From NCBI GenBank assembly GCA_038207085.1, contig JBBRAE010000006.1:1818-65817 (forward strand): 64,000 nt of DNA. Direction: 5' to 3'. The DNA is from Armatimonadota bacterium. GTDB lineage: Bacteria; Armatimonadota; UBA5829; DTLH01. The position numbers were made by a program, and so were the translations under genes. Under the pieces are notes generated by a model. It was not told the DNA's origin and made no database searches. It was given only the letters and a program-made list of their open reading frames with translations. Of this stretch, positions 30,522-56,044 are shown piece after piece (the stretch's first letter is position 1; each line of letters starts with the position of its first letter).

Positions 30522-31064
30522 ATGAATCTGAATGAGAAGACAATCAAATCAAGCAAAGTCTATGAAGGCAGGGTGGTGAACCTCCGGGTCGACACGGTGG
30601 AGCTTCCTGATGGCCGCCACGCCACCCGCGAGATCATAGAGCACACCGGCGCGGTTGCGATCGTGCCACTGCTTGACGCGTCCAGGGTCGTGATGGTCCG
30701 CCAGTTTCGCCAGGCCGCGGGCCAGATACTGACCGAGATTCCCGCAGGGACGCTCGAAGTCGGTGAGGAGCCCAAGGCTTGCGCCCTTCGCGAGCTTATG
30801 GAGGAAACGGGCTACTGCGCGGGACGTCTTACCTTGATGTTCAGCACATACCTCGCGCCGGGTTACTCGGAAGAGATGCTCCACACCTTTCTTGCCGAAG
30901 ACCTGACCCCAGCCAAGCTCGATCACGATGATGACGAGTTTCTGGAGGTCATAACCGTGGATATTGAGGACGCGGTCGATATGATCACAAACGGCGAGGT
31001 CCGCGACGCGAAAACCGTCTGCGGCCTGCTGATGGCCCGTCGCCTGAAGGGCATTTGTCCGTAG
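30522..31064 (+). CDS. NUDIX hydrolase (ADP-ribose pyrophosphatase-like)
   Basis: Nudix box GTLEVGEEPKACALRELMEETG. Confidence 0.85.
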   Translation: MNLNEKTIKSSKVYEGRVVNLRVDTVELPDGRHATREIIEHTGAVAIVPLLDASRVVMVRQFRQAAGQILTEIPAGTLEVGEEPKACALRELMEETGYCAGRLTLMFSTYLAPGYSEEMLHTFLAEDLTPAKLDHDDDEFLEVITVDIEDAVDMITNGEVRDAKTVCGLLMARRLKGICP

Positions 31065-31210
31065 GTTCGGACGCCGTGCAAACAACCTCCCGGGATACAC
31101 TCGTTTCTTTACGTAGTGACAAAAGTATGCCGGGCAAGGAGTCTCTCCTCCGCGCCCGGCTAATGCCTTTCACCTCTATTATTTCCTTTTTATTATTATA
31201 GAGTGGGGAA

Positions 31211-31397
31211 TGTCTAAGAGCATGTCTGAGAAGTGTAGTGGCCGTCTGCTGTGACGGCCATCGGCTCCGAAGGAGCCGGAAAACGGTGGAATTTCGTGCC
31301 AATTGAGCATTGCTACGAGTAGGGCAGCGCCTACGGCGCTGATGGCCGGCACGGCGACCGGCCCCTACAATTGGGATTTCTCAGACACGCTCTAAGG
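31211..31397 (+). repeat. Copy 1 of a 187-nt highly structured repeat element with about 20-bp imperfect terminal inverted repeats (MITE-like element or structured ncRNA). Copy 2 is at 53278-53464.
   Basis: About 92 percent identical to 53278-53464. The ends GTCTAAGAGCATGTCTGAGAA and TTCTCAGACACGCTCTAAG are inverted. Internal hairpins are TGGCCGTC-loop-GACGGCCA, CGGCTCC-GAA-GGAGCCG, and CAGCGCC-UACG-GGCGCTG (UACG tetraloop). Loop nucleotides differ between copies while stems are conserved. Confidence 0.6.
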
Positions 31398-31670
31398 GGT
31401 CAGTGTCTGTAGACCGGTGTCGGCGGCGGGGACGATCACGGGGGTGCCGCTTGCGTCGGTCTGGCTGTAGCCGGTTATAGCGGCGAACGTTCCGTCTGCC
31501 GGGGTCTGCCCGAGGAACGTTGTCGCAAGCTTGCACCAGGCTGGGACCGGCACAGGGTTGCCGTTTGCGTCCAGCTGGGTTCCAGGGACAGCCGATCCGT
31601 CGTCGATCCAGATTCCGCCGGAGTCGACGTGCACTTTCCCTGCGACCTTGACGAGTGAGCTAACCTGCAT
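31392..31670 (-). CDS. Hypothetical 92-aa ORF, possibly the C-terminal remnant of a truncated gene, bracketed by two repeat elements
   Basis: The ORF stop abuts the 187-nt element and its start abuts the double-hairpin repeat. Codon usage is GC-rich, but there are no homology cues and no clear RBS. Confidence 0.25.
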   Translation of the reverse strand: MQVSSLVKVAGKVHVDSGGIWIDDGSAVPGTQLDANGNPVPVPAWCKLATTFLGQTPADGTFAAITGYSQTDASGTPVIVPAADTGLQTLTP

Positions 31671-31736
31671 TATTCACGAGGAGCGTGAATAATGCTTTGA
31701 TAGCGAGAGCTTTATTCGCTTCACGAATAAAGCGGG
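31667..31736 (+). repeat. Copy A of a 70-nt double AT-rich hairpin element (3 copies in the window)
   Basis: GCATTATTCACG-AGGAG-CGTGAATAATGC (12-bp stem), then a 14-nt spacer, then GCTTTATTCG-CTTCA-CGAATAAAGC (10-bp stem). Also at 45221-45290 (inverted) and 60068-60137. Confidence 0.6.
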
Positions 31737-31765
31737 CTAACGTGTGCGCGGCCCAGAGTACGTGC

Positions 31766-31796
31766 AAAAAGGCCGGAGAGATTACACTCTCCGGCC
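31766..31796 (-). terminator. Rho-independent terminator downstream of pilT
   Basis: On the minus strand, GGCCGGAGAG-UGUAAU-CUCUCCGGCC is followed by UUUUU, 80 nt after the pilT stop. Confidence 0.5.
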
Positions 31797-31828
31797 TTCG
31801 GTTGTATCTATCAAATTGTGACGTTTGC

Positions 31829-31878
31829 AAAAGCTAAAAGCTAAAAGCTAACAGTTAATGGCTAATAGCTAACAGCTC
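31829..31878 (+). repeat. Tandem AGCTAAN heptad tract containing the 18-mer GCTAATAGCTAACAGCTC shared with 36240-36257
   Basis: AAAGCTAAAAGCTAAAAGCTAACAGTTAATGGCTAATAGCTAACAGCTC lies immediately 3' of the pilT stop. Confidence 0.6.
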
Positions 31879-53277: not shown

Positions 53278-53464
53278 AGTCTAAGAGCGTGTCTAAGAAG
53301 TGTAGTGGCCGTCCGTCGTGACGGCCATCGGCTCCGAAGGAGCCGGAAAACGGTGGAATTACGTGCCAATTGAGCATTGATACGAGTAGGGCAGCGCCTA
53401 CGGCGCTGATGGCCGGCACAGCGACCCGCCACTACAATCGGGATTTCTCAGACACGCTCTAAGC
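53278..53464 (+). repeat. Copy 2 of the 187-nt structured terminal-inverted-repeat element
   Basis: About 92 percent identical to 31211-31397 over the full length. Differences are concentrated in hairpin loops. Confidence 0.6.
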
Positions 53465-53640: not shown

Positions 53641-55170
53641 TTACCTTTCCCCGAACGCCACCCCACGCACATACTCGTTCGTCCGCACCAGCGAATCTGC
53701 CGTGCTGGCGATCGTTTTGCCATTCACCGTAAGACCAAGAAACCGGACATTCTCTATCATGTGCTCGGTGTCGCAGCCCTTAATGTCGATGCTGGGTATG
53801 TCTACGCCGCGCACATCAATTCCGCTGAACACAACGTTGCGCACCCGTCAGACTCCGCTGTCCTTGGCCCAGACATCCTTCTGATTGTCAATCTTCACCA
53901 ATGCTCGGCCCATGTGATCGTCGCAGGAGCTTTTCGGATACTCCACAGACATACGCTCAAATATGACATCCTCGACGGTACCACTGTCACTGACGTGCAC
54001 GCCAATCGGCCAGTTGCGAGCAAAGATCACATCACAATCGGTGAATCGAACATTTCGTATGTTGGCCCGCGTCTCATAGGATATCCCGAACGCATAGCCC
54101 CAGTCGTTCCATGCCACGCAACGTTCATAGCGGATGTTCTCAGCCTTAAGCTCCGGGTTGGTCGTCTTGACCACGAAACTGTCGTCGTGATTGCGGATGA
54201 AGCAGTCACGAACAGTTATATTTGAGGAACTCACGCAGTTGATACCATCACTGTTCAACCTCCCACTTATCCCACAGACACCCTCAATGGTCACATCGTC
54301 GCAATCAACGATGGGAATGTTCCAGTTAGGTGAATTGCGCAGAGTCACACCCTCGACTCGTACTCGCTGTGAGCGTCCCAGACGAATGAGGTTCTTGGCG
54401 GGATGCGGTAGCAGCGTACCATCCAGAATACCTCGTCCGCAGATTCTAACGTCCTGCACTTCGGCGACATCTATCACTGGGCCAGGGTAATAGTACAGAT
54501 TGAGCACGCCGCTTCGCTTACCGCTGGCGCCGGCTGGCAGCACCCCCCGCACAATGGCGTCACCGTGCAGGTAGACAGTCTGCCCGCTTTTGACCTTGAT
54601 GGTATTCACCCAGTGCTCCCCCGGGCCAAAATAGATCACGTTGGGATCTTCGGGTTTCGGAGCGTTGACTTCCGGCCGATGAGTGAACAGGTGCAGTGGC
54701 TCCTTGTCGGAACCATCAAGTAGCACGGTGATCTGCCGAGGCTTGTCCATACGGAAGCGGACAGTTCGACCCTTCACATCTGCGGTGATACCAGCCGATC
54801 GGGGCAGGATGTCAGCCTTACTAAAATCACGGTCCACAGTTACTGTTACTTCCACAGTCCCTGAGAAATCAAAGCGCGCAAATCCACACCAGTCAGTGGG
54901 CCCATTAAGCATGTGAGTCCATCCGGTGTCTGCGGGGCTGCTGATCTGCTCTCGGACACGAGCACTCCACACAGGAACTGTCACCCCGCCGACCTGAACC
55001 TTGTAAAGAGGAAACGGCGACTCAGTAAGTGGAATGGCCCAGGTAGTCACCTTGCCCATTGTCGTGGCTCCAGCCATCGCCTCTTTCGGCCCCACTGCGC
55101 CGTCTTGGGCAACGCAGACCAACGAAGCAACAACAATGCAAGCGGCAAATACCGCAACCACTCCATTCAA
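53641..55170 (-). pseudogene. GH28-like right-handed beta-helix glycoside hydrolase (polygalacturonase-like) interrupted by an in-frame TGA at 53848-53850
   Basis: A 440-aa ORF (signal peptide, then NSDGINC, RNHDDSF and beta-helix repeats) ends ...AKDSGV-TGA. The same frame continues RVRNVVFSGIDVRG...IENVRFLGLTVNGK for 68 more codons. Confidence 0.5.
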
Positions 55171-55641: not shown

Positions 55642-55872
55642 ATGAAAGCTGCACCCGATCCGAGAGTCGCAATATTGGGATTGTCTCGCAGTGAACTTGT
55701 CGTGCTGGTTGATAGTCTGCTGGAACGGCTGTCGACGTTGGAAGGCAGCCTCCGGCAACTCCAGGAGCAGAATGCCTCGCTCTCCGCCGAGAACGATGCG
55801 CTCCGTGCCCAAGTCAAGGAACTGCTGGATAAGCTGAATAAAGACATTCACAACAACAGCAGCCATCCGTGA
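55642..55872 (+). mobile_element. IS66-family transposase N-terminal fragment (leucine-zipper region only). A remnant.
   Basis: The coiled-coil LERLSTLEGSLRQLQEQNASLSAENDALRAQVKELLDKLNKDIHNNSS resembles the LZ_Tnp_IS66 N-terminus (...LEARL.KNSSNSSKPP). The ORF stops after 76 aa with no zinc-finger or DDE domain following. Confidence 0.5.
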
Positions 55873-55969: not shown

Positions 55970-56044
55970 TGGTGGGCGATACTGGATTCGAACCAGTGAC
56001 CCCTTCGGTGTGAACGAAGTGCTCTCCCACTGAGCCAATCGCCC
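55970..56044 (-). tRNA. tRNA-Val (anticodon CAC)
   Basis: The reverse complement is GGGCGAT-TG-GCTCAGTGGGAGAGC-A-CTTCG-TTCACAC-CGAAG-GGGTC-ACTGGTTCGAATCCAGT-ATCGCCC-A-CCA. All four stems pair. CCA is encoded. Confidence 0.9.

Follow-up and report, generated by a model that had tools for sequence, protein, structure and literature searches.

The two repeats that lie 22 kb apart in the window (the whole 64-kb stretch of Armatimonadota DNA that was analysed) are very probably copies of a non-coding MITE of the IS5 family with a PIF/Harbinger-like TWA footprint. We demonstrate its terminal inverted repeat (TIR), its target-site duplication (TSD), the context of its target, its lack of coding capacity, and the connection of its TIR with IS5-family transposases in other genomes; we infer that it was mobilised in trans in its Armatimonadota host. 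The first-pass annotation, made from the sequence alone, had offered two descriptions, a MITE-like element or a mobile structured ncRNA. The former is strongly supported by the 15-bp TIR, the 3-bp TAA TSD, and the occurrence of the same terminus with TWA around IS5-family elements elsewhere. The strong predicted fold follows from the palindromic design of the element, which is thus a commonplace relic of mobile DNA and does not represent a new structured RNA. Its significance beyond annotation is small: it represents a previously unlisted MITE family in the poorly studied Armatimonadota.

Extent and anatomy of the two copies

Both copies were found where the first-pass annotation had placed them (31211-31397 and 53278-53464), and their identity, previously estimated at about 92%, is 94% over 185 nt with 0 indels by BLAST (E 2.6e-79). 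The gap-free aligned repeat pair, 31215-31395 and 53282-53462 (94% identity), has abrupt edges of similarity, and the two copies are dispersed, with flanks that are unrelated to one another; a segmental duplication is thereby ruled out. A third copy in the 64-kb window was not detected by short-word BLAST, by an nhmmer profile, or by a pattern search allowing 3 mismatches. The TIR pattern occurs 4 times in the window, once at each end of each copy, compared with 0.02 occurrences expected. As bounded by TIR and TSD, the element proper is 175 bp in each copy, and not 187 nt as initially reported. Its features are:

31215-31217, no strand: left TSD of copy 1, TAA preceded by C; read directly and equal to the right-hand TAA
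31218-31392, no strand: copy 1 of the MITE proper, 175 bp; from the TIR and TSD boundaries
31218-31232, plus strand: left TIR of copy 1, GAGCATGTCTGAGAA; 14/15 match to the right TIR
31378-31392, minus strand: right TIR of copy 1, reverse complement GAGCGTGTCTGAGAA; from the sequence and pattern search
31393-31395, no strand: right TSD of copy 1, TAA followed by G; read directly
53282-53284, no strand: left TSD of copy 2, TAA preceded by C; read directly
53285-53459, no strand: copy 2 of the MITE proper, 175 bp; from the alignment, TIR and TSD
53285-53299, plus strand: left TIR of copy 2, GAGCGTGTCTAAGAA; from the sequence and pattern search
53445-53459, minus strand: right TIR of copy 2, reverse complement GAGCGTGTCTGAGAA; from the sequence and pattern search
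53460-53462, no strand: right TSD of copy 2, TAA followed by G; read directly

Each copy is laid out as TAA-GAGCRTGTCTRAGAA...TTCTCAGACACGCTC-TAA; copy 1 reads TAA-GAGCATGTCTGAGAA...TTCTCAGACACGCTC-TAA, and copy 2 is arranged alike. The left and right 15-bp TIRs are identical at 14 of 15 positions in either copy. The terminal inverted repeats noticed at first pass are therefore real, while the closing helix of about 20 bp ascribed to them resolves into the 15-bp TIR plus a near-palindromic C-TAA-G target. Positions 4-66 are approximately 72% reverse-complementary to positions 117-186, each of these arms (~65 nt) contains a GC-rich palindrome of its own, and a profile of the element matches its own reverse complement (E 1e-16); the whole element is an imperfect palindrome.

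A look for target-site duplications, which the first-pass annotation had proposed, found TAA on both sides of both copies as a direct duplication between C and G (target C-TAA-G). On the left, both copies also have the same three bases, GTC, next to the TSD. The shared C is explained by the target preference described below, and the shared GT was put down to chance (1 in 16).

The terminus in other genomes and its link to the IS5 family

The genome scan used the query TWAGAGCRTGTCTRAGAA, which represents the TIR and not the interior of the element; the source genome is not among the loci listed. The scan returned at least 108 loci, a count that by itself proves nothing because chance alone would yield ~140 hits to an 18-mer of such degeneracy in 596 Gb. 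At 36 of the 108 listed loci, against an estimated 1-2 by chance, there is an inverted partner TIR (≤2 mismatches, within 4 kb), and in ~26 of the pairs among the listed loci the same triplet, TAA or TTA, flanks both sides, where the scan had fixed one side only. Many genomes among the matches listed contain multiple loci in which a family-specific interior adjoins the terminus. Most paired elements among the listed loci are small and non-coding (61-336 bp); six are long, at 848-1013 bp (L025, L037, L060, L079, L090, and L095). The ORF of the L060 element matches DUF4096 (1e-29 to 3e-29), DDE_Tnp_1 (1e-24), and, with 226 bits against a cut-off of 110 bits, the NCBIfam model NF033580 'IS5 family transposase'. 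The L090 ORFs contain the same Pfam domains (DUF4096 and DDE_Tnp_1), the DDE ORF scoring 96.7 bits on NF033580, which is under the cut-off. By tblastn, relatives of the IS5-family transposase were identified in 9 of the listed loci. The same design is also seen in annotated IS5-family elements on plasmids of Nostoc (C-TTA-GAGGGTGT...) and Rhodococcus (C-TGA-GAGAGTGT...). Position -1, immediately outside the TSD, is C in 54 of 110 ends compared with a background of 27%. The target of insertion is roughly C-TWA-G, and the preference for C accounts for the C...G that is common to both window copies.

When GAGCGTGTCTGAGAA and the TWA duplication are taken together, they bound dozens of unrelated MITE families among the listed loci (L001-L108), in phyla that include Cyanobacteria, Acidobacteriota, Verrucomicrobiota, Chloroflexota, Planctomycetota, Gammaproteobacteria, and Actinomycetota. 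These MITEs range in size from 61-64 bp, almost only two TIRs, up to 336 bp (e.g., L003 6306-6369, L052 6172-6232, and L012 6156-6491). The combination of GAGCGTGTCTGAGAA and a TWA duplication is thus a handy annotation signature for IS5-family elements and for dozens of unrelated MITE families in many phyla.

The window element has the attributes expected of a MITE: small size without a transposase gene, a TIR, a TSD, dispersed copies (two known), and a 15-bp TIR that it has in common with the transposase-bearing 848-1013-bp elements in other genomes. Its ends, GAGC...GCTC with TAA, have the IS5 short-type design of GAG termini and a 3-bp T-N-A duplication. In the proposed mechanism, an IS5-family DDE transposase acting in trans, encoded elsewhere in the genome or by a past resident, would bind both TIRs of the MITE, which would be cut out and then inserted at a C-TWA-G target. 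Staggered cleavage and repair would duplicate the central 3 bp, here TAA. Copies 1 and 2 are independent insertions that have since diverged by ~6%, and the large predicted folding energy is a by-product of the TIRs and the ~65-nt part-complementary arms.

Five points weigh against assignment to an IS5-family MITE, of which one, the shared GTC, is described above and another, the empty site that was not recovered, is described below. In addition, only two copies are known, no IS5-family transposase or transposase similarity was found within the 64-kb window, and no full-length element with the sub-terminal sequence of the MITE was found, as matches to all fetched loci stop after 20-25 nt and leave no sub-terminal sequence in common with a parent IS. 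Assignment at the level of the family does not depend on such a match. No further copy was identified by metagenome scans with an internal 20-mer or with both ends and a free interior, in viral contigs, in PLSDB plasmids (distant mode), by nhmmer and BLAST on all fetched loci, or through spurious ORF calls in a six-frame query of 5.8 billion proteins. A literature search with the TIR string returned only unrelated primer sequences. Homology with a 183-bp MITE family of Gammaproteobacteria was considered and rejected; 20-25 nt of the right end are common to the two, and past the terminus the aligned sequences are dissimilar.

A MITE of another superfamily, such as one of the IS630/Tc1-mariner type with its TA duplication, or a REP/BIME moved by a RAYT transposase, would be in keeping with the TA present in the target and with an element that is palindromic and GC-rich inside. 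However, a TA duplication leaves the termini unequal by one base, whereas the 3-bp TAA gives symmetry, and TTA/TTA or TAA/TAA is matched on both sides in ~26 independent elements among the listed loci. The full-length elements that share the TIR code for IS5-family enzymes instead of those expected for IS630 or RAYT. REP/BIME are palindromic units of 20-40 bp that begin with a conserved GTAG/CGTC head, go together with a RAYT gene, and are without TIR or TSD (PMC3733652); in contrast, the window element is 175 bp and has both. We consider derivation from another superfamily extremely unlikely.

Among known systems, the IS5-family MITE of the window is closest in design to the IS5 short-type IS (0.85-1.0 kb; DUF4096 and DDE_Tnp_1; NF033580), with which it has in common termini beginning GAG.GTGT and a 3-bp T-N-A duplication in a C...G context. 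Elements with exactly the 15-bp TIR of the window code for IS5 short-type transposases in other genomes. The window element differs in that it is 175 bp, has no transposase gene, and has an interior that matches no full-length element found. We take the short-type elements with this design to be the IS427/IS1031/ISL2 subgroups of ISfinder. PIF/Harbinger elements of eukaryotes have 3-bp duplications that read TWA and spawn many short non-autonomous derivatives with only the TIR in common. The likeness of the window element to these and to Tourist-type MITEs, which have a 3-bp duplication as well, is one of design; they belong to another domain of life, and the window element lacks their Myb-like second protein. 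The DDE transposase of PIF/Harbinger, a group characterised by 3-bp duplications, has phylogenetic ties to the IS5 family (PMC12730594).

Smaller elements offer further comparisons. Correia, ERIC, RUP, and QMITE2 are small, TIR-bounded, non-coding, and intergenic, and have highly stable predicted RNA (PMC3184786, PMC10969869), all of which the window element shares; they differ from it in TIR sequence, in TSD, and in the IS family presumed to be their parent, and some have documented effects on transcripts. Two Nostoc elements among the listed loci (L005 7208-7359 and L096 4573-4725) are 152-153 bp, with termini GAGGATGTCTGAAAA / GAGCATGTCTGAGAA and TTA or TAA duplications. These may be Nezha, a MITE of Nostoc/Anabaena. 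According to PMC3184786, which summarises Zhou et al. 2008, Nezha owes its mobility to an ISNpu3-like transposase, measures ~130-170 bp, has a TIR common to an IS in another species, is flanked by direct repeats, and has a very stable predicted fold. The window element resembles Nezha in size, in a TIR shared with an IS of another species, in direct repeats, and in its stable fold; it differs in its unrelated interior and its Armatimonadota host.

Predicted folding and coding capacity

The first-pass annotation listed three internal hairpins, of which two were confirmed: TGGCCGTC/GACGGCCA, with 8 bp and a 6-nt loop, and CGGCTCC-GAA-GGAGCCG, with 7 bp and a triloop. The third, CAGCGCC-TAC-GGCGCTG, has a 7-bp stem and a UAC triloop; the UNCG-type tetraloop reported for it arose from counting one G twice. 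Relative to shuffled sequences, the element folds with a z-score of -7.8 on one strand and -9.6 on the opposite strand. The near-equal folding of the two strands is accounted for by the long imperfect palindrome that the element forms, and such two-strand folding is expected of palindromic DNA and not of a strand-specific RNA. When 17 unrelated MITEs with the same TIR were folded, their z-scores ranged from -2.7 to -18, with a median of about -6, and the window element scored about -6 in this comparison. Very stable predicted secondary structure is described as a standard trait of MITEs in reviews (PMC3184786, PMC10969869).

Rfam 15, which the first-pass annotation had named as a check, gave no family at the gathering threshold over the whole window except for two tRNAs elsewhere in it. 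In a permissive scan of the locus the best match was to a plant miRNA precursor, which scored 42 bits where 197 are required, a sub-threshold match attributable to the long hairpin. The first-pass annotation also held that substitutions between the copies cluster in loops while stems stay intact, and preferred selection on RNA structure as the reason. Three of the 11 internal substitutions do fall in one hairpin loop (TGCTGT/CGTCGT), and the two GC-rich triloop hairpins are unchanged between copies; the mirror-image hairpin of the other arm has three substitutions. Base pairs take up 74% of positions in the MFE structure of copy 1 and include 7 of the 11 substitutions. Five of these seven break the pair, one changes C-G to U-G, and one is a double change from U-G to C-A; none is compensatory (two copies, and hence limited power). 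The fold of copy 2 is 10 kcal/mol weaker than that of copy 1. A local-hairpin model of the opposite strand places 5 of the 11 substitutions in pairs, with 3 of the 5 pair-breaking. The claim of loop-clustered substitutions was accordingly not upheld. Nor is the preference for selection on RNA structure supported, given the lack of an Rfam family, folding on both strands, MITE-typical z-scores, and stems that were not spared.

These data bear directly on the proposal of a mobile structured ncRNA gene, in which one strand would be transcribed and a multi-hairpin fold kept by selection. The very stable MFE (z -7.8), the three substitutions in one loop, the two triloop hairpins identical in both copies, and a weak promoter-like site (9/12) at 31169-31196, just upstream of copy 1, could all be read in its favour. 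We nevertheless judge such a gene very unlikely: no Rfam family reaches threshold, the opposite strand folds better (z -9.6), most substitutions fall in pairs without compensation and weaken copy 2, unrelated MITEs with the same TIR give like z-scores, and the ends are a transposase-type TIR and a TSD. Moreover, no promoter-like or terminator-like site was found inside either copy, no T-run follows any hairpin, and no promoter-like site was found upstream of copy 2. As a caution, an extreme z-score and apparently loop-only changes do not amount to evidence of a functional RNA when just two copies are compared and the transposon is palindromic.

The minus-strand ORFs that overlap the copies measure 105/57 aa and 85/73 aa and have ARNSTVFRLLRSRWPS in common, as noted at first pass. 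That a protein was thought unlikely agrees with the outcome of a concatenated six-frame translation of both copies, which found no homologue among 5.8 billion proteins. A small minus-strand protein-coding gene, to which these overlapping ORFs would belong, has practically no likelihood; the ORFs start and end in unrelated flanks, their frames and boundaries differ between the copies, and one of them runs antisense into a NUDIX gene. The two overlapping ORF pairs were marked as spurious.

Surroundings of the two insertions

Copy 1 of the IS5-family MITE lies between two convergent genes, a NUDIX gene (30522-31064, plus strand), whose stop is 150 nt from the start of the copy, and a conserved 92-aa ORF (31392-31670, minus strand). 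That copy 1 abuts the stop of this ORF, as the first-pass annotation had stated, was confirmed from the sequence: the TAG stop on the minus strand consists of the last TIR base and TA of the right TSD. The reconstructed empty site, ...GTC-TAA-GGGG..., provides the same TAG stop, and so the 92-aa ORF was not truncated by the insertion, which used the TTA overlapping the stop codon. The ORF is real and conserved: it shares 56% identity with the C-terminal half of a protein of 169 aa from a relative, and both end at the same residue, which places the insertion precisely at the native stop codon. It has no Pfam domain, and its 169-aa homologue adjoins pilT in a related metagenome contig.

In the nearest relatives (NUDIX 80-82% protein identity), a URO-D-like gene of 334-374 aa lies between NUDIX and the small ORF (L110 569-2398 and L111 1427-2984). 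The corresponding part of the window, 31065-31877, lacks the URO-D-like gene, and its small ORF is 92 aa compared with 169 aa in the relatives; the locus has thus undergone rearrangement around the point where the MITE inserted. A search through NUDIX homologues and the flanking genes yielded no empty site, as the relatives are too divergent or rearranged, with unalignable intergenic DNA, and neither insertion is spanned by the short Logan contigs from the same sample. One of these contigs (L109, sample SRR19962012) ends 66 nt inside copy 1, in keeping with a break of the assembly at a repeat, but there are also contigs of SRR19962012 that end at non-repeat positions. Directly upstream of copy 1 is a very AT-rich stretch, TATTATTTCCTTTTTATTATTATAGAG (31178-31204), and the weak sigma-70-like match (9/12, 31169-31196) overlaps it.

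By analogy with proposals for ERIC, Correia, and REP, the hairpin of copy 1 might have been co-opted as a bidirectional attenuator or a 3'-end RNA stabiliser. Its position, 150 nt past the NUDIX stop and touching the stop codon of the 92-aa ORF, would place it in the path of transcription from the 3' ends of both convergent genes, its predicted stability is high on both strands, and such effects are described for other MITEs in a review (PMC10969869). On the other hand, no U-tract follows any hairpin, a terminator scan was empty in and beside copy 1, copy 2 sits in a quite different and apparently decayed context, and convergent intergenic regions are simply places that tolerate insertions. 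We regard co-option of this kind as unlikely. A co-opted hairpin acting at the RNA level in the wider sense, whether as this bidirectional NUDIX/92-aa stabiliser or attenuator or as an sRNA from the AT-rich promoter-like stretch, is likewise improbable, marginally more so. If co-option were true, selection would be acting on the two triloop hairpins, which are perfectly conserved.

Copy 2 is intergenic, with a cluster of BrxC/BrxD-like ATPase genes on one side and a split GH28-like gene on the other, 2.5 kb from tRNA-Val. The cluster consists of two adjacent BrxC/BrxD-type ATPase genes (PF10923; 49660-52673, minus strand) of 416 aa and 387 aa, and a 260-aa ORF that lacks a Pfam domain lies upstream. 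The two genes may be a phage-defence module. At 53641-55170 on the minus strand, a GH28/beta-helix glycoside hydrolase ORF of 440 aa has a 67-aa ORF immediately after it, on the same strand in a different frame. The latter, by its position and sequence, may be the detached C-terminus of the GH28 ORF, which suggests a disrupted gene and fits the 'decayed island' in which copy 2 had been placed at first pass. A 76-aa coiled-coil ORF (55642-55872, plus strand), ending ...NKDIHNNSSHP, lies beside tRNA-Val (55970-56044, minus strand). Its Pfam hits are generic coiled-coil hits only. We take it to resemble the leucine-zipper N-terminus of IS66-family transposases, and it may be what is left of a transposase in an island linked to the tRNA.
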